DNA from: Xenorhabdus bovienii
Lineage (GTDB): Bacteria > Pseudomonadota > Gammaproteobacteria > Enterobacterales > Enterobacteriaceae
NCBI RefSeq assembly: GCF_024721015.1
Contig: NZ_JANAIF010000027.1
Coordinates: 1-32,000 of the forward strand
DNA: 32,000 bases
Reading direction: 5' to 3'
Shown here: positions 3,127-26,777 of the stretch, piece after piece
How positions within the stretch are numbered: position 1 is the stretch's first letter
Layout: each line of letters begins with the position of its first letter
The notes under the pieces: model-generated
Database searches by the model: none
What the model was told of the DNA's origin: nothing
The model's input: the letters and a program-made list of their open reading frames with translations, nothing else
Position numbers and translations under genes: made by a program

Positions 3127-4089
3127 TCATTGTTTTCCCCAAAAATTTTTATCAAATGGGTTGCCAATTATTTCATGCCAATTAATGACCTTTTCTAAAT
3201 CAGGTTTACTTAAATTCAATTTACTATCATAAGCTCTTAATTTTAATAAGTAGTCTTTCATAATTTCAATGCACTTTCTAGCCCAATCACCCTCCCCTGC
3301 GCTCCCCTTTGTTACATGAGGTCTATTCGGCATTCTTGGACGTGCAGGTTTAATTTTATCTATTAACTTTTCTTCAATATAACAAAAAACTATAGATTCT
3401 ACTTTTCGGTTAGACTTAATTTCATTATAAGTTACAGTTATTCCTGTTGCATTATTAATAATAGTTACGGCAGGCTCTATAACTCTTCTTTTAAATTCAC
3501 CGTATTTAGGATATAGCCCCTCCATACCAAGAGACATTTTTACCCACTCCACACCTAATGGATTAGTACAAATTACTCCATTTTCCTTTTTATTTTTATT
3601 TAATAACTTGTATTTCATTAACCAACTATAAATTCTAAAGGCAACCGGAGAATCTAGTTTAACCATTTCTTCTAAATTAATTTGAGTAAACGATTCTTTC
3701 AGTTCATATAAATAATCTCTAACATCTTCTGAAAACTTAACAGTGACATCGCCATAAGCATCTCCAACCCCTTGGTTTATTCTTGTAAACCAATAAATAA
3801 TATCTTTTTCGACTCGTTTTTTTTCTTCATTATATGAAAAAAGAACTACAGGTTTAGATGCTAATGATTCAACAACATTTCTAACTTGCTTATAACCAAT
3901 TTCTTTTAAACCATAAATATCTATATATTCTTTTGCGTAGACGGTATAAAACCCCTCCGGCTGAGGTTTTTTACTATCAATTTTTGTTAAAATCAAATAG
4001 AGCCAACGAATTTCAGGTAAAGTTAAGCTATACGAACCATCAATCAAATCATTTGCTTGTGTAAAAACAATAGAATTTTTATTTTTCAT
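3127..4089 (-). CDS. rep: Rep_3-family plasmid replication initiator (iteron-binding)
   Basis: The N-terminus SIVFTQANDLIDGSYSLTLPEIRWLYLILTKI matches the Rep_3 pattern (N-L-I-x-a-x-Y-x-L-t-l-x-E-x-R). An iteron array lies adjacent. Confidence 0.85.
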   Translation of the reverse strand: MKNKNSIVFTQANDLIDGSYSLTLPEIRWLYLILTKIDSKKPQPEGFYTVYAKEYIDIYGLKEIGYKQVRNVVESLASKPVVLFSYNEEKKRVEKDIIYWFTRINQGVGDAYGDVTVKFSEDVRDYLYELKESFTQINLEEMVKLDSPVAFRIYSWLMKYKLLNKNKKENGVICTNPLGVEWVKMSLGMEGLYPKYGEFKRRVIEPAVTIINNATGITVTYNEIKSNRKVESIVFCYIEEKLIDKIKPARPRMPNRPHVTKGSAGEGDWARKCIEIMKDYLLKLRAYDSKLNLSKPDLEKVINWHEIIGNPFDKNFWGKQ

Positions 4090-4338: not shown

Positions 4339-4401
4339 TGGATAAATAAAGTCATTCTGTGGATAAATAAAGTTATTCTGTTGATAAATAAAGTTATTCA
4401 C
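4339..4401 (+). repeat. Three tandem 21-bp repeats (T[GT]GATAAATAAAGTYATTC) adjoining the iterons
   Basis: Copies at 4339-4359, 4360-4380 and 4381-4401. They share the GATAAAT core with the iterons. Confidence 0.8.
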
Positions 4402-4560
4402 AGAAAATCTGTACATCTTTATTGATAAATCTGTACATCTACTTTGATAAATCCGTACATCTTTACTGATAAATCTGTACATCTTAAAAATGAGTCATTG
4501 ATAAATCTGTACATCTTTATTGATAAATCTGTACATCTTTATTGATAAATCTGTACATCT
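4401..4560 (+). repeat. oriV iteron array: six direct copies of TGATAAATCTGTACATCT plus one partial copy
   Basis: Copies start at 4423, 4445, 4467, 4499, 4521 and 4543 (22-bp period, one 32-bp gap), with a partial copy at 4401-4418. An A-rich stretch follows at 4561-4700. Confidence 0.9.
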
Positions 4561-4724
4561 ATGAGTTTATAACTTATTGATATACAAAAATTTAAATTTC
4601 ATAAGAAAAGAAAGGAAAAGTAATATGTAGCATAGGAGTAAAGAATAAGAATTTAAAGAAAAAGAAAAAAACAATAATTAATACTTCCCTTTTTAGCTAT
4701 TCAGTGACTCTGCTCCCATTACGA

Positions 4725-4800
4725 TTAAGTGATATTACGCTTCCTCGCCCGTTCGCTCCCTACGGTCGGTCACTTGGCTGCGGCGAGCGTTGCGGGTTAA
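4725..4800. repeat. Left arm of the 76-bp inverted repeat flanking the TA module
   Basis: TTAAGTGATATTACGCTTCCTCGCCCGTTCGCTCCCTACGGTCGGTCACTTGGCTGCGGCGAGCGTTGCGGGTTAA is the reverse complement of 5739-5814 with 1 mismatch. Confidence 0.95.
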
Positions 4801-4908
4801 GAATTATTCATATCTTTGATATTTTAGGACTTATAAAAACAGTGTGACTTTATGTTACTTCTAGCTTAGAATGATATTAATCAATAGTGATTATTTTTTG
4901 GGGGCTTT

Positions 4909-5172
4909 ATGTCAATAACAAAACTGAGACAACAAGGCGGGGCTGTCGTCATGACGATCCCTAGTGAGATTCTTGCTACAAAGGGCTGGTTAGTCGGAAT
5001 GGTGATGAAGATTGATTCTTTTGGGGAAGCCATTAGCACAATGCCTTTAAAACGCATTCCTAGAGGTCGCAAGAGTGTTTCTGAAATATTATCGGACGTA
5101 GATACCGTAGAGATCCAAAAGCTCAATGAGCAATTAGGCGATCATTTGCCTGTTGGACGAGAGTTAATTTAA
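4909..5172 (+). CDS. AbrB/SpoVT-fold antitoxin (PemI/MazE-like)
   Basis: GGAVVMTIPSEILATKGWLVGMVMKI fits the swapped-hairpin AbrB-type motif. The stop overlaps the start of the downstream toxin gene. Confidence 0.75.
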   Translation: MSITKLRQQGGAVVMTIPSEILATKGWLVGMVMKIDSFGEAISTMPLKRIPRGRKSVSEILSDVDTVEIQKLNEQLGDHLPVGRELI

Positions 5173-5534
5173 TGGCGAAAAAAATCCCCGCTAAAGGTCA
5201 AATTTGGCATACAAACGGCGACCCTATTAGTGGTCGAGAATTTAAAGGGTCGCATTATTATCTGGTTATTTCAGACGAACAATTAAACAAAACGTTGGGA
5301 ACGGCGATTTGCGTTCCCATTACTAGCACAGGACTGACCGCCCGCTCATCAGGAGTTACTGTGATACTTGATGGAGCAAGCACCGATAAGGGGATTGTAA
5401 CGGGGTGTGCGTTATGTCACCAGTTACGCACACTTGATTTAGAAGCAAGAAACGCGAGTTATTCTTCAAACGTGACCCTTGAAATTCTGGATGAAGTCAT
5501 TGGAAAGATTATCGATATTATCGACCCTACTTGA
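5172..5534 (+). CDS. PemK/MazF-family endoribonuclease toxin
   Basis: GQIWHTNGDPISGREFKGSHYYLVIS...AICVPITS...CHQLRTLD matches the MazF/PemK pattern (GdIw..dP..G.E..g.RP.lVls...PiTs...dQiRtlD). Confidence 0.8.
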   Translation: MAKKIPAKGQIWHTNGDPISGREFKGSHYYLVISDEQLNKTLGTAICVPITSTGLTARSSGVTVILDGASTDKGIVTGCALCHQLRTLDLEARNASYSSNVTLEILDEVIGKIIDIIDPT

Positions 5535-5835: not shown

Positions 5836-6169
5836 TCCCTTATCTTTTGTCTCCGACCGTCAGACAATCGTATTGTGTTGCGTTCTGTGCCTGTTTGGTT
5901 CGCTCCGCTCACGGCTGACCAGCCCGGGGGGGTTCCCTGCTCTATTCAATCCCCCCTTTTTTATCGGCAAATCAACTAAGGGCGTTTTCCTTGGCTTTCG
6001 TGGGTTGCCTGACATGCCCTAAAGGGCATAAAAATAAATGAAAAAAAGCAAAATATTCAAGCATTAGATCAATCTAAACCTTGCACAATCACCCGAAAAC
6101 GGGCATAATGTATTTATCGAAACGGGGAATGTTCCCTACCACTAAATGCCAATAGGCAGGAGTTTTAAA
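5836..6169 (+). repeat. Leading-region cassette copy A: GC-rich module (about 5846-6030) + promoter + palindrome + RBS
   Basis: Identical to copy B (7405-7739) except for 3 substitutions over 324 nt. About 90% similar to copy C. Confidence 0.9.
6081..6109 (+). promoter_or_regulatory. Sigma70-type promoter of cassette A, followed by the GGGAA-TG-TTCCC palindrome (6125-6136)
   Basis: TTGCAC (6081-6086), 17 nt, CATAAT (6104-6109). The spacer contains CCCGAAAACGGG. Confidence 0.65.
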
Positions 6170-7360
6170 ATGACTAAACATGAATTAGCTATGGAAGCAT
6201 TAAACCGCGCTGAAAGTAATCATTCAGAAGCTAATTATGATGCTATTTTTGCGGGATTTATGGAGATGGAAATAAGCGAGGAAGATATTGAGCCGCGTGT
6301 TAATGTTTTTACGTTCCGTGCGTGGAAAGCCAAAGGTCGCGTAGTTAAAAAAGGTGAAAAAGGCGTTAAGGTAATTACCTATATTCTTGTTGATAAAAAA
6401 GAGGAAAATTCGGAAGAAACCAAAAAAGTGAAAGTGAAACGTCAAACTACTGTTTTTCATATTTCACAAACTAAACCTTTAGATGAACCAACAGAACCCA
6501 AAGATAAAACGGAAGATATCCCCCTCGAAGCGCAGGACGTTGATTTAGAGTCTCAAGAAAAGCCGCTTAACTGGTATGAAGAAAAGCAAGCCCGCCGCAA
6601 GGAGCGTTACCAAGAACTTGCAAAGAACGCAGCTATTCAAAGTAATGGAACTTATTCAAGAGCAAAAGAAATGGCATCAGTTATTCCTTTTGGTCAACCT
6701 ATTTTAATCGGACACCATAGCGAAAAACGCGATAGAAATTACAGACAAAAAATTACAAATACTTTTGATAAATCATTTGAGCAAGCCAAAAAATCGGAGT
6801 ATTACGAAAACAAAGCCGATTCCGTTGGTAAATCAGGTATATCCAGTGATGATCCTAATGCAATTGTAAAATTACAAGACAAATTAGCGCGGTTACAAAA
6901 AAGTCATGAAATCATGAAATCAGTAAATAAAATTGTTAAAAATAAAAAATTAACTGATGAACAAAAAATAATAAATATTGCAGAGTTAGGATTAAAAAAA
7001 GAAACGGCAGAAGAATTATTAAAAGGGGATTTTATAGGGCGTATTGGGTTTGCCTCTTATCGGCTTCAAAATAATAACTCTGAAATTAATAGAATTAAAA
7101 AAAGAATAGAAAGTTTATCAAAAAATAAAGATAAAACAGATGTGATTGAGGTTAACGAAAATTTCACTTTTAAACTGGATTATGAGATTAATCGGATCAT
7201 GTTTATTTTTGAAGGAAAGCCCTCTTATGATATTAGAGAGATTTTAAAAGGAAATGGGTTTAATTGGAGTAAAACCAATAATGCTTGGATAAGAAAAACA
7301 ACTTCTAATGCGCTTTATGCTGCTAAATCTGTCAAAGCGCAATTATTAAATTTATCGTAA
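6170..7360 (+). CDS. ArdC-N-like ssDNA-binding motif fused to a DUF3560-like domain (leading-region protein)
   Basis: AGGAG lies 7 nt before the ATG at 6170; the track start at 6146 has no SD. TFRAWKAKGRVVKKGEKGVKV resembles the ArdC N-domain motif. IPFGQPILIGHHSEKRDR...ISSDDPNAIVKLQDKLARLQ resembles DUF3560. Confidence 0.65.
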   Translation: MTKHELAMEALNRAESNHSEANYDAIFAGFMEMEISEEDIEPRVNVFTFRAWKAKGRVVKKGEKGVKVITYILVDKKEENSEETKKVKVKRQTTVFHISQTKPLDEPTEPKDKTEDIPLEAQDVDLESQEKPLNWYEEKQARRKERYQELAKNAAIQSNGTYSRAKEMASVIPFGQPILIGHHSEKRDRNYRQKITNTFDKSFEQAKKSEYYENKADSVGKSGISSDDPNAIVKLQDKLARLQKSHEIMKSVNKIVKNKKLTDEQKIINIAELGLKKETAEELLKGDFIGRIGFASYRLQNNNSEINRIKKRIESLSKNKDKTDVIEVNENFTFKLDYEINRIMFIFEGKPSYDIREILKGNGFNWSKTNNAWIRKTTSNALYAAKSVKAQLLNLS

Positions 7361-7368
7361 ACATTCAA

Positions 7369-7393
7369 TAAGCCCTTAACGAGGGCTTTTTAT
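7369..7393 (+). terminator. Rho-independent terminator
   Basis: AGCCCT (7371-7376) / AGGGCT (7382-7387), followed by TTTTT. Confidence 0.65.
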
Positions 7394-7404
7394 TTATCTT
7401 GTGG

Positions 7405-7739
7405 TTTTCCTTTCTTTTGTCTCCGACCGTCAGACAATCGTATTGTGTTGCGTTCTGTGCCTGTTTGGTTCGCTCCGCTCACGGCTGACCAGCCCGGGGG
7501 GGTTCCCTGCTCTATTCAATCCCCCCTTTTTTATCGGCAAATCAACTAAGGGCGTTTTCCTTGGCTTTCGTGGGTTGCCTGACATGCCCTAAAGGGCATA
7601 AAAATAAATGAAAAAAAGCAAAATATTCAAGCATTAGATCAATCTAAACCTTGCACAATCACCCGAAAACGGGCATAATATATTTGTCGAAACGGGGAAT
7701 GTTCCCTACCACTAAATGCCAATAGGCAGGAGATTTAAA
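7405..7739 (+). repeat. Leading-region cassette copy B
   Basis: See copy A. Confidence 0.9.
7651..7679 (+). promoter_or_regulatory. Sigma70-type promoter of cassette B; palindrome at 7695-7706
   Basis: TTGCAC, 17 nt, CATAAT. Confidence 0.65.
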
Positions 7740-8075
7740 ATGTCAGTATCTAAATTAGTTTTTCGTAATGGTTCGGTTTCAGTGAATGATGTTTTAGCTT
7801 CATCTTGGGGTTACGAACAAACCAACGTGAATTTTTATCAGGTGATCGAGTTACACGGTAAAAAAACGGTCATTGTAAGAGAAATTAGTGCTAAAACGCG
7901 CAAAGATGGGAATATGTCAGGCTATAAAAAACCCGTATTAAATGACTTTATTGGTGAGCCACTTCGCCGTCAAGTGAAAGAGTATGATTCAGAGCCTTTG
8001 ATTAAAATTGAAGATTTTGAACAAGCCAGACTAACTCCAGTAGACGAAGAACACTTTTTTAGCTCTTGGTACTAA
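7740..8075 (+). CDS. Hypothetical leading-region protein (111 aa)
   Basis: ORF with the cassette RBS (AGGAG, 7 nt, ATG 7740). No family recognised. Confidence 0.6.
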   Translation: MSVSKLVFRNGSVSVNDVLASSWGYEQTNVNFYQVIELHGKKTVIVREISAKTRKDGNMSGYKKPVLNDFIGEPLRRQVKEYDSEPLIKIEDFEQARLTPVDEEHFFSSWY

Positions 8076-8149
8076 CTGATAATAACGCCCAGTAATGGGC
8101 GTTTATAAAAAACTAAGTCTAAGGGCAAACACAATAATAGGAGTGCAAA

Positions 8150-8383
8150 TTGATTAACGTAAATGATGTAAAACCCAAAGATTTAGTTTTTTTTCAACAA
8201 ACGCTAAAAAAATCAGATCAAGAAATAGCTGATCTGTTAGGCATTAGTGCTAAAACATGGGTAAATAAACGTTCTAGCACTCAAATAATTCGAAAACAAT
8301 TATTAAGCCCTGCGGAATGTGAATATTTCCTATTGTTAACAGGTATTCACCCCAAATATAAGTTAAATACGAGCAAGAAATAA
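8150..8383 (+). CDS. Small HTH (XRE-like) DNA-binding protein; TTG start
   Basis: AGGAG lies 6 nt before the TTG. QEIADLLGISAKTWVNKRS is HTH-like. Confidence 0.5.
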   Translation: MINVNDVKPKDLVFFQQTLKKSDQEIADLLGISAKTWVNKRSSTQIIRKQLLSPAECEYFLLLTGIHPKYKLNTSKK

Positions 8384-8446
8384 TTAAAATGTTTTTAATT
8401 ATTCATTGATAACCTTATTAGTCGCCAATAGGCGGGAGAAAATAAA

Positions 8447-9274
8447 ATGACCGATAAAAAAGCAACTTCATTAGATCAGCTTTCACGTCTTGATAAAGAA
8501 GCTGTAAGATCAAGAAAAACCTTAATGCTTGATATTAAATTTCTTGAGTTGCCAAAAGAATTGAATATTCGTTATGCGGGTTTAGGTTATGATGAATATT
8601 GGGAACAACCTTATGTAAAAGAATATGTCTCTAAACTGGCAAAAGACTATGCTGATGGAGGGGTTTTCCCGCCTATCGTAGTGAAATTTGACGTTGATAT
8701 CCAAAAAGCCGTTATTATTGATGGTGCTCATCGATACATGGCTATTAAAGAAGCTAACACAGAGTTAGGGGCTGAAATTATTCGCCATGCAGTAACAGAC
8801 TCTAAAGGGGATGAAGCAAAAAACATCTTATTGATGATCAACACAGGTCAGCGTTTAGATGTGAGCGCGGTTGAGATTGCCGAGGGGTTAGCCCGTTTAG
8901 AGGCGTTCGGCTTCACGGTTGAAGAAATTGCGGGAAAAGTGGGTAAAACGGTTCAACATGTTTACTATATGAAAAAAGTAAATAACTTACCCATTGAAAT
9001 CAAAAAACTGATACGCCAGAAAAAACTGACGGTTGCAAAAGCGTTATCCGGCGATAAACCGAAAAAATATACCCCGCCCAAGAAAACGGTTTCTAAAATT
9101 TTAGATATTGTGGCAGAAGCCCATCCAGAAATTAACGGGGAGTTGGTGAATGTGTCAATTCCGCTGGAACTCTACAAACAACTGTTTGATCCAAATATGG
9201 ATATTAATAACGAGAGTCAAGAAGAGGAGAGTCAAGAAGAGGAGAGTCAAGAAGAGGAGAGTCAAGAAGAGTAA
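8447..9274 (+). CDS. ParB/Srx-fold (ParB-like nuclease domain) protein with an acidic (ESQEE)x4 C-terminal tail
   Basis: PPIVVKFDVDIQKAVIIDGAHRYMAIKEA matches the ParB N-domain DGxHR motif. An HTH-like segment FTVEEIAGKVGKTVQHVYYM follows. The upstream CGCCAATAGGCGGGAG resembles the cassette RBS. Confidence 0.7.
   Translation: MTDKKATSLDQLSRLDKEAVRSRKTLMLDIKFLELPKELNIRYAGLGYDEYWEQPYVKEYVSKLAKDYADGGVFPPIVVKFDVDIQKAVIIDGAHRYMAIKEANTELGAEIIRHAVTDSKGDEAKNILLMINTGQRLDVSAVEIAEGLARLEAFGFTVEEIAGKVGKTVQHVYYMKKVNNLPIEIKKLIRQKKLTVAKALSGDKPKKYTPPKKTVSKILDIVAEAHPEINGELVNVSIPLELYKQLFDPNMDINNESQEEESQEEESQEEESQEE
9212..9271 (+). repeat. Perfect 15-bp x4 tandem repeat (GAGAGTCAAGAAGAG) encoding ESQEE x4
   Basis: Read directly from the sequence; it ends at the stop codon. 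Confidence 0.95.
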
Positions 9275-9330
9275 TCTATCGTAAAGAGTGGCTATTAGCC
9301 GCTCTTTATTATTATATGAAAGGAAGTTTA

Positions 9331-9615
9331 ATGATTTTAAATTATGAATTAATTTTTAGAAAAGTGAAAGGAAATACCTTTAGTGAGTGTTTTTCTGTTT
9401 TTCACAATAGTGAAAAATACAAGCTCGTCTTTCAGAAGTTCAAGCGAGATCAGGTTTCAAGAGAAGATAAGCTCAAGGGGATAAAGCCTAAACGAACTTT
9501 ATTAATGGAAACTGAACATTATTTCACAAAACTTGAAAATATTGAGTTTTCATTACTGCCCTGCAAAGAACTCACGAAAGAATTTTGTGAGAAATTTAAT
9601 TTATTTTGGAGATAA
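9331..9615 (+). CDS. Hypothetical protein (94 aa from the ATG at 9331)
   Basis: AAGGA lies 7 nt before 9331; the track start at 9316 lacks an SD. Confidence 0.45.
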   Translation: MILNYELIFRKVKGNTFSECFSVFHNSEKYKLVFQKFKRDQVSREDKLKGIKPKRTLLMETEHYFTKLENIEFSLLPCKELTKEFCEKFNLFWR

Positions 9616-9617
9616 AA

Positions 9618-9998
9618 ATGAAAAGAAATAATCAAACAATGATTAGTTTAGAATTCGATAAATTATTAAAATTGGTTTCTAATCGAAATAAAAAATGCGA
9701 GTCTGTTATTTGTTGTATATGGGCTTTTTTTTGTGGATTTTCTGGTTGGTGTATTTATTCATTCCCGGCAGAAGTCGCGGCATGTTTTGTGTTCATGTGT
9801 TTTCTTATGACTTTAGTTATTATGCTATTTGTTCATGCGTGTTTTACTAGCTTTGATTCTATAGCCGAATCTTTATATAAAAAATTATCCAGTGATGAGA
9901 TCGCAGAAATTGAGTATTTTTCCATTTTAAAGCGATGTGATATAGACAATAATCTAATTATTGATTACGCCAATGAAAAATTAATACAAGGATATTAG
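9618..9998 (+). CDS. Small membrane protein (2 predicted TM segments)
   Basis: GGAG lies 6 nt before the ATG at 9618. Hydrophobic stretches CCIWAFFCGFSGWCIY and AACFVFMCFLMTLVIMLFV. Confidence 0.5.
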   Translation: MKRNNQTMISLEFDKLLKLVSNRNKKCESVICCIWAFFCGFSGWCIYSFPAEVAACFVFMCFLMTLVIMLFVHACFTSFDSIAESLYKKLSSDEIAEIEYFSILKRCDIDNNLIIDYANEKLIQGY

Positions 9999-10001
9999 GA
10001 A

Positions 10002-10274
10002 ATGAACTTAATTAAGTTAGAAAAAATCGTAAATTTTACTTTTTCGATCATGGTTTTTGTTGTGGTTGGTCTATTATTAACGGATAAATACCTTTCGATT
10101 AGTCCTATCTTTTTCTTTGCCATGTATATATTGGCAGGGTTAAATATTTTTTTAGTAACCTTTAATCGTAAGGGTAAAGGGGTTTTACTTAAAATCAATC
10201 GGATTTTATCAATAATTCTCGCAGTCACGTTAACAATAGGACTCGGGTTGATTGTGTTTTTTTTCTTTATTTGA
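10002..10274 (+). CDS. Small multi-pass membrane protein (90 aa)
   Basis: Three hydrophobic segments. AGGA lies before the ATG. Confidence 0.5.
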   Translation: MNLIKLEKIVNFTFSIMVFVVVGLLLTDKYLSISPIFFFAMYILAGLNIFLVTFNRKGKGVLLKINRILSIILAVTLTIGLGLIVFFFFI

Positions 10275-10311
10275 GCACGTAAAGTTATCCACGGCTTTAA
10301 AAAGTCGAGCA

Positions 10312-10392
10312 GGATTGCCGCACCCTTAAAAGTGCGGCAATCCGTAGCGCACGGGTAGCTGATAGCGTAGCGCAGGCGTACCCGCGATTTTT
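10312..10392 (+). other. GC-rich structured island: a perfect 12-bp hairpin plus a second hairpin with a T-run (terminator-like)
   Basis: GGATTGCCGCAC (10312-10323) / GTGCGGCAATCC (10332-10343). CGGGTA (10352-10357) / TACCCG (10379-10384), followed by TTTTTT. Confidence 0.55.
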
Positions 10393-10519
10393 TAAGTGCG
10401 GTGGGTAACTTGGTATCACAAAAAATAAATTTGCTAATAGCTGGCCGTGCATTTTTCGTTGGCAAATAAAAAAAACAAGCCGCCTAAACGATTCTGAGCG
10501 GTTTAATCATTTAACGTGA

Positions 10520-10824
10520 CGTTTCCCATATCTTTTGTCTCCGACCGTCAGACAATCGTGTTGTGTTGCGTTCTGTGCCTGTTTGGTTCGCTCCGCTCAC
10601 GGCTGACCAGTGCGGGGGGGGTTCCCTGCTCTATTCAATCCCCCCTTTTTTATCGGCAAATCAACTAAGGGCGTTTTCTTGGCTTTCGTGGGTTGCCTTA
10701 CATGCCCTAAAGGGCATAAAAAATCAAAAATAAACTTGCACTAACGCCCTAAAACGGGCATAATATATTTGTCGAAACGGGGAATGTTCCCTACCACTAA
10801 ATGCCAATAGGCAGGAAAGTTAAA
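10520..10824 (+). repeat. Leading-region cassette copy C
   Basis: Same module as A and B, with a G-tract +1, a T-tract -1 and a shorter linker between the module and the promoter. Confidence 0.9.
10746..10774 (+). promoter_or_regulatory. Sigma70-type promoter of cassette C
   Basis: TTGCAC, 17 nt (containing GCCCTAAAACGGGC), CATAAT. Confidence 0.65.
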
Positions 10825-11028
10825 ATGCAACCAACTATTATTATCAATATTCTATTCAATAAACCTAAAACGTTTATTTTTCACCTTAAAGCGTTAAATG
10901 TTCACAAAGAAATCGTTAACGTAGAAACAACTCTTATTCAGGTAAAAGACACTGAGCATCTTTTAAGTGAAATCAAACGTTATGAGGATTTGGGATATAT
11001 AGAAATCGCGTGTAAAGAAATGATCTAA
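10825..11028 (+). CDS. Hypothetical small protein (67 aa)
   Basis: Cassette RBS before the ATG at 10825. Confidence 0.5.
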   Translation: MQPTIIINILFNKPKTFIFHLKALNVHKEIVNVETTLIQVKDTEHLLSEIKRYEDLGYIEIACKEMI

Positions 11029-11034
11029 AAGAAA

Positions 11035-11064
11035 ATAACCGCTAGAGGGCAATCTAGCGGTTAT
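11035..11064 (+). terminator. Perfect 12-bp hairpin after the 10825-11028 gene (no clear T-run)
   Basis: ATAACCGCTAGA, loop GGGCAA, TCTAGCGGTTAT. Confidence 0.5.
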
Positions 11065-11094
11065 CACATCAACATAGTTAAATGAGGTTTAAAT

Positions 11095-11292
11095 ATGTCA
11101 AAAGAAATGTTATCACTGATTGATTGCGTTAAGCAAGGATTACCCGTCAAAATGCCAGCCATGACAGGGAAGGAGTTTAAGGCGTTTATGGCTGAAATCA
11201 ACAATCATAACTCTGTGGCATTTCTTTATTCTGCCGTGTTATCTGCGTTGCTGTTTTTGTTGTGCTTCTCTAAAGAGTCAATTGTTTTTTAA
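11095..11292 (+). CDS. Small protein with a C-terminal TM segment (65 aa)
   Basis: GAGG lies before the ATG. C-terminal AFLYSAVLSALLFLLCF. Confidence 0.5.
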   Translation: MSKEMLSLIDCVKQGLPVKMPAMTGKEFKAFMAEINNHNSVAFLYSAVLSALLFLLCFSKESIVF

Positions 11293-11307
11293 CAACTTTA
11301 CTTAATT

Positions 11308-11330
11308 AAAGCCTATTCGTAGGCTTTTTT
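11308..11330 (+). terminator. Rho-independent terminator
   Basis: AAAGCCT / AGGCTTT stem followed by TTTT. Confidence 0.7.
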
Positions 11331-11376
11331 AAAAGGGTTTATCATGTCATAACTCACCGAATTACAATTATTTGAC

Positions 11377-11643
11377 TTGCTAGAATACTTCACAGAATTG
11401 GCGAATGAGGGTTTTATCAAGTGGAGTGATTCGTTAGATACCCCTGCCCCTGAACTGTTTGATAGCATCGAGGGTTTACACTTGGGTTATTATGACCTGA
11501 TTAATTTTTATTTTAAAGATGGTTATCCGGTCGGTTTTAGCGATGAATCACTATTATTAAAAATTCAAAAATTAATAGTTGCAATCACGCCCGTTATCGG
11601 GCATATTGTATTTATTGAAACGGGAAATATTCCTTACCACTAA
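11377..11643 (+). CDS. Doubtful ORF (TTG start) whose 3' end reads through promoter cassette D
   Basis: ORF track only. Its last ~20 codons are the conserved promoter and palindrome sequence. Confidence 0.25.
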   Translation: MLEYFTELANEGFIKWSDSLDTPAPELFDSIEGLHLGYYDLINFYFKDGYPVGFSDESLLLKIQKLIVAITPVIGHIVFIETGNIPYH

Positions 11644-11667
11644 ATGCCAATAGGCAGGAAATTTAAA
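11579..11667 (+). promoter_or_regulatory. Cassette copy D (short form: promoter + palindrome + RBS only)
   Basis: TTGCAA (11579-11584), 17 nt, CATATT (11602-11607), then GAAACGGGAAATATTCCTTACCACTAAATGCCAATAGGCAGGAA. Confidence 0.65.
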
Positions 11668-11979
11668 ATGACAACACGTAATATTGAAATTGCAAACACA
11701 ATTTTAGCTCAAATGGGAGGTAATTGTTTTATTGCCATGACAGGCGCAAAATATCTGGTAGCCATTGAAAATGGGTTGCAATTTAAACTTCCAGCGCGTT
11801 TTGCGGCAAAGGGCATTAACTGCGTCCAAATCACCCTCGAACCGTCCGACACCTATAAAATGAAATTTTTAAAAATCAGAGGGATAGAGTGTAAGGAAAT
11901 ATCCGAAATTCAAGGGGTTTTTTTCGACCAGCTTCAAGAATTTTTCACAGAAAAAACAGGGTTAAATTCCTATTTATAA
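11668..11979 (+). CDS. Hypothetical leading-region protein (103 aa)
   Basis: Cassette RBS before the ATG at 11668. ILAQMGGNCFIAMTGAKYLV...ITLEPSDTYKMKF looks like a conserved plasmid or phage family that I cannot name. Confidence 0.6.
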   Translation: MTTRNIEIANTILAQMGGNCFIAMTGAKYLVAIENGLQFKLPARFAAKGINCVQITLEPSDTYKMKFLKIRGIECKEISEIQGVFFDQLQEFFTEKTGLNSYL

Positions 11980-12453: not shown

Positions 12454-13731
12454 CTAATCACTTGATATTAAATCTGCTAAATCATCAAGCGTCAGCCCAA
12501 ATTCATATAGCAATGATATGGCTTTTTCTTGATTTATCTGTTTTAGTCGCTGCCGCTTAAATTCTCTTGCTAGCCTAATTTTATTTATTCTTTTTATTTC
12601 TGATTGATAGTGTTCAAAAATTTTCATTTTTTTCATAAATTGTAGTGGATTACCATTCTGATTAGGAGAATTAGGACAGTACATATCCAATACATTGAGG
12701 CTGGAGCGAAATTCGTTATAATTACAGTGCAAAATATTATCAGAAATATTATGGTAAACTTCTCCAGCAAGAGTGGATTTAAAATCTGGATTGAAGCCGC
12801 CTGTATTCATTTTTAAAACTGCTTCTACACAGAGTTTAATCGGAGTCCATTCAAATTTTTCTCTTAATTTGAATTTATGAGATGATAATTTTCTTAACTT
12901 GGCTTTTTCATAAAATATATTGAGTGCAATGATGTTGTCACCAATCGTAGCATTGATAGATATCACTTCTGGCGGTATGGCTTGATAACTGCTTCTTGAA
13001 CACCCATCGATAATACTAATTTCAGGTAATTCAGGAGAAACCATGAAACGTTTACTATTTATTGTTCGTGCATTGTATGGTGTGAGTTCATAAATTGGTT
13101 TTTCACTCTCTGGTTTGCCTTTTTGCCAGAAATGAGTAATGACATGAGTGTTTTTTCCACATATTGAGCACTCTCCATGAGAACGACTTGATGAATCCAG
13201 CCAATAGTAGTTTGGAATGGAGAAATAAATTGAGGTATCTGCACTATCAGATGTATTGCTTTTTATGGTTTCTCCCAGCGTCTCTTTTTCAATAAAATAT
13301 GTTACGGTGTTGAAATACATACCAGGGCGGAGTCCTGTCCCTCCCGGGCTAACAAATTGAGTTTTAGTATATAGTGCAATTGCGGCACATGGTTCACACA
13401 TTTGTTGACAATTATTCCGTTTGACGAAATGGTCAGTATTTTTTTTAATGGCGCTTTCACTAGGTGAGTCTAGTAACAATAAATCTATATTTTTTAGAGT
13501 CCCTTCTTGTGCTTTTGGATCTTGCACAAACCGTTCTATACCATTTAAGACCGTATAGAATTTATACGGATATTTTTTAACCCCGATCATTAGCAATAAA
13601 AAAGCGTAGTGAAATTCAAATCGGCTGAACGCCAGATGTGAGAGAGGTAAATTCATTGCCTCATCGATTGTGATGCGGGTAAATCCGCCGTTCTGCATTA
13701 CAGGAATCCATTTATCATTCAACAAATCCAT
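12454..13731 (-). CDS. Solitary Cse1/Cas8e-like protein (type I-E Cascade large-subunit homologue), 425 aa
   Basis: By-eye alignment to E. coli CasA: MDLLNDKWIPV vs MNLLIDNWIPV; LAFSRFEFHYAFLLLMIGV vs LSLPRDDMELAALALLVCIGQ; MCEPCAAIALYTKTQFVSPGGTGLRPGMYFNTVTYFI vs LCGGCTAIALFNQANQAPGFGGGFKSGLRGGTPVTTFV; ECSICGKNTHVITHF vs KCSCCGQESNLRYTGF. No other cas gene or array in the window. Confidence 0.75.
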   Translation of the reverse strand: MDLLNDKWIPVMQNGGFTRITIDEAMNLPLSHLAFSRFEFHYAFLLLMIGVKKYPYKFYTVLNGIERFVQDPKAQEGTLKNIDLLLLDSPSESAIKKNTDHFVKRNNCQQMCEPCAAIALYTKTQFVSPGGTGLRPGMYFNTVTYFIEKETLGETIKSNTSDSADTSIYFSIPNYYWLDSSSRSHGECSICGKNTHVITHFWQKGKPESEKPIYELTPYNARTINSKRFMVSPELPEISIIDGCSRSSYQAIPPEVISINATIGDNIIALNIFYEKAKLRKLSSHKFKLREKFEWTPIKLCVEAVLKMNTGGFNPDFKSTLAGEVYHNISDNILHCNYNEFRSSLNVLDMYCPNSPNQNGNPLQFMKKMKIFEHYQSEIKRINKIRLAREFKRQRLKQINQEKAISLLYEFGLTLDDLADLISSD

Positions 13732-13733
13732 AG

Positions 13734-14120
13734 TTACTCCTGAACGTATTTTTTGGCTATTTGGTGTAAATCAGAGAGGTAGGTTTCCTCATGAATTGAA
13801 TTATTTATGGCATCAAATGCGCCTTTTCTATAATGCTCATCCTCGTAGGTGTACTGAGAAACTATAGATTCAATGACGTCGGTAGTGACATCATCACCTG
13901 AGATGAAGCCAGATTTAGCGAGCGCTATCGCCTCGTTTATTTCACGCTGTTTTTTCTCTAGTGCCTCGATTAATCGATATGTCATAGGGGGACGCGAATC
14001 ACCAGATACATAGCGTCTAACTGCGCGAGACTCTACTCCCAAAAGGCGAGACATAGGAGATTGCCATTGTTTACCAAAAACTTTTTCACCAATTACAATT
14101 AATTTTTCTCGGTTATCCAT
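13734..14120 (-). CDS. HTH DNA-binding protein (Cro/YdaS-like N-terminus); candidate operon autoregulator
   Basis: FGKQWQSPMSRLLGVESRAVRRYVSGDSRPP is HTH-like. GGAG lies before the ATG. The stop is 2 nt from the Cas8e-like start, which suggests translational coupling. Confidence 0.65.
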   Translation of the reverse strand: MDNREKLIVIGEKVFGKQWQSPMSRLLGVESRAVRRYVSGDSRPPMTYRLIEALEKKQREINEAIALAKSGFISGDDVTTDVIESIVSQYTYEDEHYRKGAFDAINNSIHEETYLSDLHQIAKKYVQE

Positions 14121-14170
14121 GAATTAATCTCCATAAAAAAAAGCCCCGCTTATGCAAGGCTTTATGTTAT

Positions 14171-14329
14171 TTAAACCCGATATTTTTCTACGATGGCATT
14201 AGCGCTTTCATCGTCTTCAGCATTGCGATACAGATCTTCGATTATTTCGTCTTCGCGCTCGATATCAATAGCATTAATCCAGCCGCAGTTAGTTAAATAG
14301 GTTTTAGCATCATTGGTTGAATTAAACAT
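14171..14329 (-). CDS. Small acidic protein, 52 aa (13 D/E, 5 K/R)
   Basis: The internal ATG at 14329 has GAGGA 6-7 nt upstream and lies downstream of the predicted promoter. The track start at 14449 lies upstream of that promoter. Confidence 0.55.
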   Translation of the reverse strand: MFNSTNDAKTYLTNCGWINAIDIEREDEIIEDLYRNAEDDESANAIVEKYRV

Positions 14330-14386
14330 ATTTGAATCCTCTAGTGGTTTGTTTATCGGTCGGGTCAATTCCCTTACCGTAACTAC

Positions 14387-14415
14387 AGTATAAAATGACC
14401 TAATTATTAGGTCAA
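14387..14415 (-). promoter_or_regulatory. Near-consensus sigma70 promoter with an embedded palindromic operator
   Basis: On the minus strand: TTGACC (14415-14410), 17 nt, TATACT (14392-14387). The spacer holds GACCTAAT-T-ATTAGGTC (14397-14413), with perfect 8-bp arms. Confidence 0.7.
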
Positions 14416-14498
14416 TAAAGATTACTAAATAATCTGTTATTTTTATCACAAACTCTCAACACCCCATGCCATCAGTTATCCACGGCTTTATGATTTTT

Positions 14499-14564
14499 CT
14501 CTTATCTTTTTGTCTCCGACCATCTGACTATCTCGTTGTGTTGCGTTCTGCGCCCGTTGGGTTC
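14499..14564 (+). repeat. Degenerate copy F of the 5' part of the GC-rich module
   Basis: CTCTTATCTTTTTGTCTCCGACCATCTGACTATCTCGTTGTGTTGCGTTCTGCGCCCGTTGGGTTC aligns to 5838-5902. Downstream sequence has diverged and carries GC hairpins (for example 14648-14667). Confidence 0.75.
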
Positions 14565-17829: not shown

Positions 17830-17869
17830 TTAATAACAACTAAATTCTGACAGTGATAATTACAGGCAC

Positions 17870-17938
17870 GAGGGCGATGTATACATTAAGCTAAAGCTTC
17901 ATGTATAATCGACGTGCTTAGGGGGAAAGTCCCCCTAA
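17870..17938 (-). other. oriT: Candidate oriT: two inverted repeats plus a CGCCCTC nic-core-like motif on the minus strand
   Basis: IR1 is ATACATTAAGCT (17881-17892) / AGCTTCATGTAT (17895-17906). IR2 is TTAGGGGG (17918-17925) / CCCCCTAA (17931-17938). The minus strand reads ...AATGTATACATCGCCCTCGTG after IR1. Confidence 0.45.
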
Positions 17939-17989: not shown

Positions 17990-18346
17990 ATGAAAGAATC
18001 AAAAATAGAAAGAAAAAACATGGTGTCGTTTAGATTAACTGATGAAGAGTACGCACCATTTAAAGAAATCATTGAAAAAATGGATGTCAGCAAGAGTGAG
18101 TTTTTTCGCATGATGGTACTTGGTCAGGTTGAGGCAATTCCAAAGCTTCAAACCCGAAAACCGCCAGAGTATGACCGCATTCTCTTTTTAGTGAATAAAA
18201 CGAGCAACAACGTTAATCAGATTGCCAAACAAATTAACATTGCTTACAAAGAAAACACCGTGACCGAAAAACAGTTAACCGATTGGTATCGCAAATTGAG
18301 TATCATTACTGACAACTTAACGATAGGGATAGAACGTGTTAAGTAG
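17990..18346 (+). CDS. mobC: MobC-family relaxosome accessory protein
   Basis: VSFRLTDEEYAPFKEIIEKMDVSKSEFFRMMVLG...NNVNQIAKQIN matches the MobC family pattern (RHH-like N-terminus plus NxNQiAr). Confidence 0.8.
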   Translation: MKESKIERKNMVSFRLTDEEYAPFKEIIEKMDVSKSEFFRMMVLGQVEAIPKLQTRKPPEYDRILFLVNKTSNNVNQIAKQINIAYKENTVTEKQLTDWYRKLSIITDNLTIGIERVK

Positions 18347-21300
18347 AATTGGCGGTGGTAATAGTGGGATAGTTTATTACCTTGAAACAGGTCAAAAGCA
18401 AGGTCGTGAACTTGGGCGTGATGATTTAGACTATCGTTTATGTTTAGATGGGAACATCGAGCAATTAGATCATGTTATTGAAAGCATTCCAGATAAAGGA
18501 CAAGAACGCTATTTACACATTTCACTTTCTTTTCATGAAAGCCAAGTAAATGAAGAAACACTAAAAGCCGTTTGCGAAGAATACAAAACGCTTTTAATGA
18601 ATGCTTACGATAAAGACGAATATTGTTTTTATGCCGAAGCACACATTCCGAAAGTAAAAAATGTTGTCGATGAAAAAACGGGATTATTAATAGAAAGAAA
18701 GCCCCATATTCATATTGTGATCCCCGAAAAAAATTTATTAACAGGAAAACATTTAAATCCTAGAGGTCGTGGTGAATTCAATATTAAAAGCCTTGATGCC
18801 ATTCAAGAGCATATTAATAGTAAATTCAATTTAGCCAGTCCCAAAGATGGAGTTAGAGTAAGCGATCAGAACCATGCTAATGTATTATCCCGTATGAAAG
18901 GGGATTTGTTTAGTGAAGCTAAATCCGAGCTTAAACAAACGTTAATTTCTGACATTGAAAGTAAAAGCATTAAGACAGAAAAAGATTTTTTGACTCATTT
19001 ATCGCAATATGGGGAGGTGAAAACCTATAATCAAGGTAAATCAAATCAATATTATGGGGTTAAATTACCAGATGAAAGCAAGTTTACTCGATTAAAAATC
19101 CCATTATTTTCAAAACAATTTATTGAAACGCGGACTATTCCTTTAATCAAGCCAACTCCAAAGCAAATTGAAAAAGATTTAAACGAATGGTGCAATAAAA
19201 CCAGTCATGAAATAAAACATATTCATCCCGCAGGGGAAAGGTTGCGTAAAACCTACGCGAAATCAAGCGATCTTCAAAAAGCAGATATGCTTTTAACGTT
19301 AAGGAATCAATACAATGAGCGACACCAAATTGAACGAGAACCCAGAGAAAACCTTCATGGACAATTACAGCCCGGGAGAAATCCGCAGCGAGGTTTTACA
19401 CATCATATCCAAAGAACTCAATCCCGATCCGCGCCGGAGCGATTGTCATCTTTGCAAGAACGCAACATGGTTTACGAGCTACGAGGATTCGGGCAGCGCA
19501 AAACCGGACAATCTAACCCTGTATTGTCACCTAATGAACGTGGTGTTATTAAAAACGAACAAGATAGACAATATCATCGTAGCGGAATGCGACGGACATC
19601 GAATTCAAGAGGACGAGGAAGAATAACAAATCCAATTCAGCAATCATTAATGAAATTGGAAAATAAACCCTCTGAAAATGATTTAACGTTAATGCGAGAA
19701 ATCAGACAAACGATAAATCCTGAACGGTTTTTATCGTATTGCGTCAGTAAATATAATATTGACCCTGCATTGCATAAAGTGACGTTTGCAAAAGATAACA
19801 GCCCTCGATTTTGCGTTAGTAAACTAAATTTAAATGCGAGTGATTTTCTCACAAAACATTTAGGTTTATCGTGGGAAGATGCTAAAATAGACTTATTAAC
19901 GGTTAATGAATCTCAACAAAAAAATGAACCTTTCTTATCGGTTTTATCACGACCTCCATTAAATCGTGAGCAAGCAAAAGAAAGGTCTATTTCACGAGAA
20001 ACCGCGAAAAAAACATTAAACGTTTTTTACCGTGATGAAAAGAAAGCGTTGGAATTTGAATATCGAAAAGAATTGAAATCCATTTTTTCAATAAAAGATG
20101 TTCAAAAAAAAGAAGTTGAACGCGGCTTTTTAATGTTTAATCATTTAAAAGACATTGAAGCTTTAAATAAAATCACGCAGGAAAAACGCAGTGTTGTTAA
20201 TGCGATTCATAATCACTGGAATCCAAGTGATTTAGAACAGAAATTATTACTTGATAAAATGTTAACTGAAAGAGGAAATTACATGACCAATAAAATTATG
20301 AATGCTGATACTGATTTTAGTTTTGAAAAAGCAGTCACTCGCAAAAAACAATTTAATGAATTTGAAGAGCAAGTGAATTCAGGTAAAAAACTTACTGATT
20401 TAGTGGCATATAAAAAAGATAAGGAAGTCCAATATCTTGATCAAAAGACCAAACAAATGGTTTTTAAAGACACAGGTTCACATGTTGAAGCGAAAGGAAC
20501 AATCAGTAAAAATGAAGCCGCAATGATGCTGGAATACGCCAAAAAAAAATATGGCGGTGCATTACGTTTATCAGGCAGTGACGCTTTTAAAGAAACCCTC
20601 GCGCTTGCTGCTGCTGAAAAAGGCATGAATATTATTTTCACACCTGAAAAATATCATGAAATGATGTTAAAAGAGGTTGAACGCCTTAAAGAAATACAAA
20701 AACAGCAAAATACAAGTGATTTTAAAGAGCAAGATTCAAATACCATTAAAGAAAATACTAACATTAAAGTTGATTATCAGGTTAAATCTGAAAAAGAATC
20801 CGTTATTGAAAGTCCGCATGAAATCACAGTTGATAATACCCCTAAAAATACGTTATCTACGTTAGAAATGGAACCTGTTCATATCCCTGAAAGAAAAAAT
20901 AATGACCTTTCAGTTATGGCAAATAATGATGTACGAGCTTACGAGCAGAATAAGATTGCTGCTTATGAAATCATGTTTAAATCTCAACATAGCCCTGAAT
21001 ACGCTCAAGCATTAAAATCAGTGGGTGTTGATAAAGATACAATGCAAAACATTGAATTAATGGGTAGGCCAAGTCAAATCCCTGAGCAAGCGCGATTAGA
21101 CATTGAAAACAAAGTGAAAGCAATGGACTTTAACGTGTCTAAGTCTGATCTCGAAGCAATGGCAGCGCGTGATTTAAAGGCGGTAGAAAATCATAAAGTC
21201 ACTGCTTATGAAGTTATGCTTAAAATTGATTCTAATCCCGAATACGCTCAAGCATTATCGAAAATTGCGCCTAACGACGAGTTTATGAAAACAATTGAAA

Positions 21301-26469: not shown

Positions 26470-26530
26470 ATGATTATTTTTGCAACATCAAAAAATCCTT
26501 AACGTGTGAATTCGATGTGGCTTTAATTTT

Positions 26531-26720
26531 CTTTCGTCTCCGACCGTTTAACATCCTCATCGCTTTAGATGATGTTCTTACAGTTCGCTACGCTCACGGC
26601 TTGGCAGGAAGTGGGGAGGTTAGGTAAATTATACCAGCCCCCTTCTTTTTATCAGAGGATTAACGGTAGGTGCTCTCTGTGGGTTGCGATGTGCCTCTTC
26701 CCTCATACCCTGACGGGCAC
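26531..26720 (+). repeat. Degenerate copy G of the GC-rich module (conserved blocks only)
   Basis: GTCTCCGACCGT (26536-26547), GTTCGCTACGCTCACGGCT (26583-26601), a G-run and C-run followed by TTCTTTTTATC, and GTGGGTTGC (26679-26687), in the same order and spacing as copy A. Confidence 0.7.
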
Positions 26721-26777
26721 AAATCAAAAAGGGGCTATACGCCCCTTGATTAAAAATAAAAGCCCTAATGGGCTTTT
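26721..26777 (-). terminator. Two tandem rho-independent terminators after the 26786-27397 gene
   Basis: AAAAGCCC / GGGCTTTT (26758-26777) and AAGGGGC / GCCCCTT (26729-26747). Each has a T-run on the minus strand. Confidence 0.75.

Follow-up and report, generated by a model that had tools for sequence, protein, structure and literature searches.

A two-module repeat in the leading region of a Xenorhabdus bovienii plasmid may form a CUP-type regulon with a pSC101 par-like element

CUP repeats are described (Delver and Belogurov 1997, as cited in PMC6289460 and PMC5371602) as the leading-region regulon of the IncN plasmids pKM101 and R46; in R46, the copies end at the ATG of ccgAI, ardA, ccgD and ardB. 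A second described system that bears on this work is the par locus of pSC101; located some 200 bp from the origin, it binds gyrase, raises negative supercoiling at the origin and can be replaced by a suitably positioned and oriented strong promoter near the origin (PMC5043065). We analysed a stretch of 32,000 nucleotides of X. bovienii (NZ_JANAIF010000027.1, positions 1–32,000; hereafter the window, with all coordinates on the forward strand), in which a repeated block precedes unrelated genes of a plasmid leading region. The explanation that we favour, at a probability of about 0.6, is that these repeats form a CUP-type leading-region regulon made of two separable modules, in which double-strand promoters are combined with a par-like module and the copies are homogenised by recombination.

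A 43-nucleotide core, GAAACGGGGAATGTTCCCTACCACTAAATGCCAATAGGCAGGA, occurs at 6119, 7689 and 10774 with no mismatches and at 11617 with three, always on the plus strand, and its expected count in shuffled sequence is 0 (100 shuffles). The core lies in a block of about 95 nucleotides found four times against a chance expectation of 0, and each copy ends at the ATG of an unrelated plus-strand gene. Full copies read TTGCA(C/A), exactly 17 nucleotides, CATA(A/T)T, a 55-nucleotide leader and GGAG or GGAA, followed after 7 nucleotides by the ATG at 6170, 7740, 10825 and 11668. The last 15 nucleotides, GCCAATAGGCRGGAR, which comprise a hairpin and the Shine–Dalgarno (SD) sequence, are present five times (expected 0), including 8424, before the gene that starts at 8447. 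An earlier note on this DNA had proposed that the same promoter, palindrome and ribosome-binding site precede unrelated leading-region genes, with a remnant only at 8447, and both statements hold: there are four full copies, and the remnant is the last hairpin with the SD. The block also carries an upstream ATG, within AAATGCC, in frame and 24 nucleotides 5′ of the gene start, which yields open reading frame (ORF) starts at 6146, 7716, 10801 and 11644. Since this upstream ATG explains all four ORF starts, the MPIGRxFKM prefix of the predicted proteins is a nucleotide-level artefact, as had been suspected; in related plasmids, the annotated homologues begin at the downstream ATG and not at the upstream one.

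The block of about 90 nucleotides that was first delimited is real but was cut too short, leaving out roughly 200 nucleotides upstream. Repeat finding and alignment show copies A, B and C to be composites of about 330 nucleotides that start near 5841, 7411 and 10522, the block being their 3′ part. Their order is module 1 (the 5′ 200 nucleotides or so, about 50% G+C within an AT-rich plasmid), an A/T-rich linker of 43 nucleotides in A and B and about 10 in C, and module 2 (the 90-nucleotide block). In copy A, the hairpin-bearing module 1 (5841–6037; 164.9 bits with the module 1 model described below) is divided into sub-part 1a (about 5841–5925), which is like the pSC101 par core, and sub-part 1b (about 5915–6037), which is like the IncN CUP core and ends in the hairpin ATGCCCtaaaGGGCAT (6015–6030) followed by an A-run. 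The linker (6038–6080) is A-tract-rich and resembles an UP element; copy B has it unchanged, and in C it is much reduced in length. The promoter-like core (6081–6109) consists of a −35 TTGCAC (6081–6086), the palindrome CCCGAAAACGGG (6092–6103) within the 17-nucleotide spacer and a −10 CATAAT (6104–6109). The shared leader (6116–6172) contains the hairpins GGGAATGTTCCC (6125–6136) and TGCCAATAGGCA (6147–6158), the SD GGAG (6159–6162) and the spurious in-frame ATG at 6146, and leads into a DUF3560/ArdC-N gene (ATG at 6170). As a separate observation, the 3′ end of module 1 (6003–6036: TTGCCT, 16 nucleotides with the hairpin ATGCCCtaaaGGGCAT, CATAAA) resembles the promoter of module 2 (6081–6109: TTGCAC, 17 nucleotides with a hairpin, CATAAT), a likeness that could mean that a segment was duplicated internally or that the same factor has a second site here.

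Copy B (7411–7742; module 1 at 7411–7607, a promoter at 7651–7679 with the hexamers of A displaced by 1570, and the leader) precedes a gene of 111 residues (ATG at 7740; phrog_37844). Over 5843–6172, 3 of 330 positions distinguish A from B (6110, 6116 and 6163), so the near-identity reported before stands, with the figure of 3 in 324 corrected. Because the non-conserved linker is also identical, this near-identity points to recent duplication or conversion rather than to selection alone. Copy C (10522–10827) has module 1 at 10522–10725, a short A-rich linker, TTGCAC at 10736–10741, CATAAT at 10759–10764 and the leader, and stands before a gene of 67 residues (ATG at 10825). The remaining copies have one module each. 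Copy D (11579–11670) is module 2 only, with TTGCAA (11579–11584), 17 nucleotides, CATATT (11602–11607) and the leader, before a gene of 103 residues (ATG at 11668; phrog_9437). Copy E (14503–14564) is a fragment of 1a only (module 1 model E 2.2e-10, model positions 9–70), and copy F (26520–26727) is a full-length, diverged module 1, 63% identical to A (model E 9.2e-37), without a promoter block and surrounded by minus-strand genes. Copies D, E and F lie on the plus strand like the others, and all five window copies of module 1 share one strand. The partial leader before the ParB-like gene (8423–8449; ATG at 8447) retains the hairpin CGCCAATAGGCG, with a compensatory change from T-A to C-G, and GGAG; the same variant is found in the related plasmids L006, L007 and L008. 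Copy D overlaps the 3′ end of the plus-strand ORF 11377–11643, whose stop is the TAA of the conserved CACTAAATG, and a homologous annotated coding sequence of L006 (18570–18857) ends inside the block in the same way.

The module 1 model is sequence-only and built from six copies, none of them from R46 or pSC101. It matches all four leading-region CUP copies of R46 in gene orientation (E 1e-8 to 2e-7, model positions 78–205), and a fifth R46 match in the same range of E adjoins the repA iterons. By eye, both elements have the layout GGCTTAGCAGG-GGGGG ... CAGTCCC ... GGCGA/TCGCC ... CCATGCCCTGACGGGCATAAAAA. The comparison with CUP drawn in the earlier note was therefore apt, the upstream 200 nucleotides or so being homologous to all four leading-region R46 CUPs; its remark that the sequence differs is true only of the promoter-proximal 90 nucleotides. 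The organisation is shared as well. In both cases several direct repeats (300–450 nucleotides) stand before unrelated leading-region genes that point toward oriT, each with a GC-rich upstream part, the hairpin CATGCCCtnanGGGCAT with an A-run, an A/T-rich stretch, promoter, leader, SD and ATG; in both, one copy lies beside the repA iterons and the repeats recombine. There are also differences: the promoter-proximal 90 nucleotides have no match in R46 (module 2 model, L005), the regulators ArdK and ArdR are absent from the window, and the candidate ArdK site CGTACTTGTATTGAC, common to the ardK and CUP promoters, overlaps the −35, whereas the conserved palindrome of the window is in the spacer. 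The R46 CUP has, in addition, about 200 nucleotides of extra GC-rich sequence, and the window repeat has a pSC101-par-like 5′ part that did not align in R46. With ArdK absent and the promoter-proximal part unrelated, the window repeats are not strict members of the IncN CUP family.

The same model matches pSC101 at 4759–4880 (49.6 bits, E 1.8e-15, model positions 4–128), in a non-coding segment about 125 bp from the DnaA box and the iterons. This segment falls within 4613–4896, the interval deleted in pMW119-delta-par, if its bounds are read from the published primers; pMW119-delta-par became unstable (PMC4041236). As judged from these sequence matches, module 1 of the window, the upstream half of CUP and the par core of pSC101 are homologous, and module 1 may, by analogy with par, be a putative gyrase-binding, supercoil-setting site. 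Like par, it adjoins a Rep3-type iteron origin, is non-coding and points away from the origin. In the window, the par-like element is physically joined to a predicted promoter of the oriented kind that can replace par in pSC101. Two differences are that the window element is present in three to five copies per plasmid, scattered over the leading region, and that par is without the extra 3′ half (the CUP core) that module 1 carries. A functional analogy, with no claim of sequence relation, can be drawn with repetitive extragenic palindromic sequences and bacterial interspersed mosaic elements (REP/BIME), which are also GC-rich palindromic repeats between co-directional units; BIMEs are described as enriched for gyrase cleavage sites (PMC6379681). 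Module 1 differs from them in being longer, plasmid-borne and origin-linked.

Module 1 was found in 54 plasmid records and its 5′ part alone in 217, mostly small mobilizable plasmids with pSC101 among them, to be set against the statement of a review that the par locus is unique to pSC101 (PMC5043065). The small plasmids with the 5′ part belong to the pSC101 family of replicons and are arranged as mobA, traD-like gene, element, ori, repA. The copy beside the replicon is directed away from the iterons in the window, where copy A is the nearest one to the iterons at 4377–4582, and also in pSC101, R46 and L002 (NZ_CP099265.1). The latter, a plasmid of 1951 bp, has only a pSC101-type repA (67% identical), an origin and a full-length module 1 at 1678–1879, and module 1 can therefore travel with a bare replicon. 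A pattern scan of the genome collection gave 84 loci, mostly due to chance, the real ones being about 17 in Enterobacterales or plasmid-like contigs. A full-text literature search that did not take in the original CUP description found no report of a link between CUP and par.

Three or four helices of module 1 are kept as inverted repeats: CYGTG/CACGG, a G-run/C-run pair, GGCAA/TTGCC and the terminal ATGCCC/GGGCAT. Counted on the filtered rows of a 41-row alignment, pairing in these helices is 87%, a figure that falls to about 50% if the partners are slid. Compensatory changes turn GGCAA/TTGCC into GGCTG/CAGCC, GGCGG/CCGCC and GGCGA/TCGCC, and the terminal hairpin has the variants ATGCACC, ATGCTC and ATGCGC. 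RNAalifold returned no structure on the raw 41-row alignment, owing to gaps, and Rfam returned nothing relevant at the gathering threshold on the whole window or at E up to 10 on the block. The helices contain about 55 G·T and 19 A·C cells, a weak hint in favour of the plus strand, weak since this strand is G+T-rich and the excess may be compositional. We also considered the terminal hairpin as a terminator and rejected it: its A-run lies 3′ of the hairpin on the plus strand, so that on the minus strand a T-run precedes it, and the preceding units already have separate terminators 5′ of modules B and C.

Module 2 was searched with a sequence-only model in the window and in four related Proteus/Providencia conjugative plasmids, which gave 25 full-length and 6 partial matches, all on the leading-region coding strand. 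The matches that reach the 3′ end of the model all stop at a start codon; one extra weak match, inside the relaxase gene, is probably due to chance. Across the 25 copies, TTG, the 17-nucleotide spacing, the spacer palindrome and CATAAT are near-invariant, and positions 4–6 of the −35 vary (CAC, ACA, TAT, ATA), giving TTGCAC, TTGACA, TTGTAT and TTGATA. The small palindrome noticed in the promoter spacers of the window, GCCCGAAAACGGGC, often in the form ATGCCCG-N4-CGGGCAT, is thus kept in the relatives too. Module 2 reads as an ordinary double-strand sigma-70 promoter, as predicted from its conservation pattern, and the palindrome is likely the operator of a plasmid repressor. In the predicted leader RNA fold there are two hairpins in every copy and the SD and AUG are unpaired, with z-scores that are not significant (−0.1 to −0.8). 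The distant plasmid L004 retains both hairpins with other sequences, GAAAGGGGauguUCUCUUUC and GCCCuuaaGGGC, and the copy at 8447 shows a compensatory change from TGCC/GGCA to CGCC/GGCG. We read the leader, from this modelled fold, as a standard mRNA 5′ end that would give stability and an open ribosome site; it is also possible that it is the target of a regulator.

The nearest plasmids are conjugative Proteus/Providencia plasmids of about 40–60 kb, with about 82% identity. Module 2 is confined to 7 plasmid records of Proteus/Providencia, at 42 places (5–7 per plasmid), in the search of other plasmids that had been advised before. Downstream there are about ten unrelated families, including DUF3560/ArdC-N, a ParB-like protein and several small proteins of no assigned function, and across the plasmid lineage a given cassette is mostly paired with orthologous genes. 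In four relatives (L001 9960–10542, L006 24971–25479, L007 36579–37087 and L008 9232–9740), a relBE/parDE-type toxin–antitoxin pair lies between modules 1 and 2, upstream of the DUF3560 gene; in the window, no such pair separates the modules, and a PemK-type pair (4909–5534) lies upstream of module 1. Because a toxin–antitoxin pair can intervene and because copies D, E and F hold single modules, modules 1 and 2 are separable units. Copies of module 1 are 95–99% identical within the window and 78–87% identical to those of the relatives, which supports the recent homogenisation proposed earlier. The two L001 copies are 96% identical to each other, and in L006, L007 and L008, copies at the same position are up to 100% identical between plasmids and 86–89% within one plasmid. 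On these sequence identities, the pattern is one of concerted evolution by recombination on top of vertical descent; CUP-mediated recombination is documented in IncN2 plasmids (PMC5371602). Separately, about 100 nucleotides of module 1 in copy C (10574–10678) are 97–99% identical to single sites on two large Xenorhabdus plasmids, a match much closer than any that the rest of the window has in the collection.

The cassette-driven genes (6170–11979, plus strand) lie in the leading region, 6–12 kb from a candidate nic site, and are oriented toward oriT. The candidate oriT (17863–17938, minus strand) consists of the inverted repeat TTAGGGGGActtTCCCCCTAA, the inverted repeat TATACATGAAGCT/AGCTTAATGTATA and then CATCGCCC↓TCGTGCCTG, the arrow marking the candidate nick. 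It is adjoined by a NikA/MobC-like gene (17990–18346, plus) and by a relaxase with an LPD7 domain (18336–21875, plus). On the minus strand, the second inverted repeat is followed after 8 nucleotides by CATCGCCC↓T, resembling CGCC↓CT, the nic core of RSF1010; as a rule, such a repeat lies 5′ of nic on the nicked strand. Since the relaxase operon points away from the candidate oriT and the nic-like core is on the minus strand, the minus strand would be the one transferred, lower coordinates first, and the incoming strand is therefore the template for the cassette genes. This geometry, which had been put forward conditionally, holds.

These findings can be assembled into the following proposal. 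The TTGnnn, 17 nucleotides and CATAAT of module 2, with the A-rich, UP-like stretch upstream, would act as a sigma-70 promoter on duplex DNA, and the spacer palindrome (AT)GCCCGAAAACGGGC(AT) would be the operator of a plasmid repressor. The promoter would be fused to a standard leader with two small hairpins, an unpaired GGAG, 7 nucleotides and AUG, and transcription and translation of any gene behind module 2 would begin in the same way. Once a donor is established, the repressor would keep the gene set low; in a new recipient, the promoters would fire once the complementary strand is made and before the repressor accumulates (zygotic induction or overshoot), a step suggested by the IncN CUP/ArdK and IncW-type networks. 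Module 1 would be an independent cis element inherited from Rep3-type replicons and lying between the terminator of one unit and the promoter of the next, as well as beside the iterons. There, its gyrase site would remove the positive supercoils produced by strong co-directional transcription and keep promoters and origin negatively supercoiled. The copies would be multiplied and homogenised by homologous recombination. The anatomy of the repeat, the conservation of promoter and leader, the homologies to CUP and par, the separability of the modules, their concerted evolution and the orientation of the genes to oriT are observed or computed; the activity of the promoter, repression at the palindrome and gyrase binding by module 1 are what we infer.

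Several results weigh against this explanation. No repressor was found: ArdK and ArdR gave nothing in a tblastn search of the window (best E 5.6 and 2.5), and the product of 8150–8383 has no Pfam, NCBIfam, PHROG or PDB match at threshold. Its best Pfam hit, Xre-like-HTH (helix-turn-helix, HTH), has an E of 0.055, below threshold, and its proposed place as the nearest candidate among plasmid HTH genes is accordingly not confirmed. R46 matches only positions 78–205 of the module 1 model and pSC101 only positions 4–128. Covariation in module 1 is modest: 11 cells with two-sided changes against 6.3 ± 2.0 in shuffled alignments, a value reached in 13 of 500 shuffles. A consensus scan shows no enrichment of promoter-like hexamers in this AT-rich region (21 sites, 22 expected), and because of this the sigma-70 call is based solely on the conservation pattern. 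Finally, the spacer palindrome could be a DNA or RNA hairpin instead of an operator.

As the incoming strand is the template for the cassette genes, the blocks might be Frpo-like single-strand promoters: the transferred minus strand would fold, and RNA polymerase would transcribe the genes or make primers before the complementary strand exists. The Frpo/ssi elements of IncF and IncI1 plasmids are likewise repeats of about 330 nucleotides upstream of leading-region operons templated by the transferred strand (ssi1–3 in ColIb-P9 and Frpo in F), with presumed early expression of establishment genes. The distance of 6–12 kb from the candidate nic site and the several small hairpins conserved in promoter spacer and leader fit such a role, and single-stranded DNA promoter classes unrelated in sequence are still being discovered (PMC12672017). 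However, the described classes 1–3 are large stem-loops that rebuild −35 and −10 as duplex (PMC12672017, PMC11541004), and an inverted-repeat scan of the block found arms of only 9–12 nucleotides and none that covers the hexamers. The hairpins leave the hexamers single-stranded, the transferred strand having only the template side of the −10. Shuffled sequences fold about as well as the 341-nucleotide block (z = −0.29 for the minus strand, −0.60 for the plus strand); known Frpo/ssi sequences (PMC11541004 supplement) gave a best blastn E of 0.11, and the class-1 profile had no nhmmer match in the window. In the helices of module 1, the G·T pairs speak for the plus strand rather than the transferred one. 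We therefore regard this explanation as improbable, and transcription of the incoming single strand from the blocks, which the earlier note implied, is not supported, there being neither a hairpin that rebuilds −35 and −10 nor a match to Frpo/ssi. Slightly less improbable, but still a doubtful proposition, is that module 1 alone is a single-strand initiation or structure signal (for primosome, primase, RNA-polymerase priming or a roadblock), working at the lagging-strand template of the vegetative origin or on the transferred strand and not via gyrase. Module 1 stands beside iteron origins in four replicons and always points away, an orientation that suits a strand-specific signal and less obviously a duplex site; its five window copies share one strand, its hairpins are conserved with some compensatory changes (GGCAA/TTGCC, ATGCCC/GGGCAT), and ssi-like palindromes beside iterons are described in small plasmids, where their loss leads to multimers and instability. 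Set against this, module 1 has no sequence match to known ssi/Frpo and no Rfam family match, the fold energy of the block is not unusual, and in the fifth R46 copy the orientations to the origin and to the transferred strand disagree. Experimental data exist for one homologue only, pSC101 par, and the literature presents it as a gyrase site that works through supercoiling (PMC5043065).

For the leader, a reading as mainly a post-transcriptional control site (for CsrA, a small RNA or a nuclease), setting mRNA stability and translation for all genes of the set, is a real possibility, albeit one that we consider less probable than not holding, and it is compatible with the favoured explanation. 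Two GGA motifs, in GGGGAAUGU and in the SD, lie about 32 nucleotides apart, and across plasmids with only about 82% backbone identity the leader shows stronger conservation than the −35. Both hairpins are kept with changed sequence in L004 and in the copy at 8447, which fits a nucleic-acid structure better than a protein operator. Rfam, on the other hand, finds nothing in the leader, and its fold z-scores are not significant, as given above. The resemblance of the GGA motifs to CsrA sites is a loose one. The near-identical copies before unrelated genes and the modular, separable unit could also suggest the end of a mobile element, or a repeat of the miniature inverted-repeat transposable element type, with an outward promoter. 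We find this hardly credible: the block lacks terminal inverted repeats, there is no transposase close by, and module 2 turns up only in the 7 plasmid records of a single lineage, each time at a site of the same type that ends at a start codon; the association of cassette and gene is largely orthologous across related plasmids.

Within the favoured two-module explanation, candidates for the repressor are the conserved ORF of 77 residues at 8150–8383, the ParB/KorB-like 8447–9274 and the ORFs of sigma-70 region 4/LuxR type at 1357–1617 and 2208–2468; ArdK and ArdR gave no BLASTP alignment with the sigma-70-region-4-like ORF. It was also observed that the oriT-distal inverted repeat TTAGGGGGActtTCCCCCTAA (17918–17938) has a GGGGA..TCCC core in common with the leader palindrome GGGGAATGTTCCC (6124–6136 and equivalent positions), and that the oriT regions of relatives also have GGGGA(0–4 nucleotides)TCCC. 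Both might be recognised by a single protein such as the NikA/MobC-like product, whose role as the regulator is a more speculative suggestion drawn from this shared core.

We also entertain, as a tentative and rather unlikely extension, that CUP repeats and pSC101 par belong to a single, widespread family of cis elements associated with origins. In some conjugative plasmids, copies of the element would have spread over the leading region as a topological or strand-specific module for each gene. Each early gene would then bring its own gyrase-loading (or single-strand-active) site and fire on newly double-stranded, still relaxed DNA. In a sharper form of this idea, module 1 with the hairpin-in-spacer promoter could be a new, non-Frpo coupling of strand conversion to early transcription. 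If each early gene does carry its own topology module, this bears on how a freshly transferred plasmid becomes transcriptionally competent. For the upstream part of CUP, so far without an assigned function, the par homology offers a testable one, namely gyrase and supercoil control or a strand-specific, origin-associated signal. With the two-module explanation itself, the CUP regulon would no longer be limited to IncN but would include a lineage of Proteus/Providencia plasmids, resistance genes being present in some of its members (cfr in CP047287), and module 2 would be a compact natural expression cassette with promoter, leader and ribosome-binding site in about 90 nucleotides.

Other features of the window complete the picture of the plasmid. 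The Rep3-type rep gene is at 3127–4089 on the minus strand, and the iterons of this replicon at 4377–4582 are eight units of 22 bp. On the minus strand of the leading region, 12454–14449 contains an ORF of 425 residues with partial similarity to Cse1/CasA (type I-E Cas8e; PF09481, 2.6e-11 over residues 68–202; TIGR02547, 8.7e-8), followed on the same strand by ORFs of 128 and 92 residues. No other cas genes were seen, and the Cse1/CasA-like product could be a decoy or an anti-CRISPR-type factor. Near rep, 1123–1588 and 1973–2439 belong to a tandem duplication of about 850 bp (95–96% identical), each duplicate holding one of the two minus-strand ORFs of 86 residues with a sigma-70 region 4/LuxR-type HTH (1357–1617 and 2208–2468); related plasmids have one annotated 'sigma factor-like HTH' gene near rep. 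In the ParB-like gene, four tandem units of 15 nucleotides, GAGAGTCAAGAAGAG, at 9212–9271 encode an acidic (EESQE)n tail.

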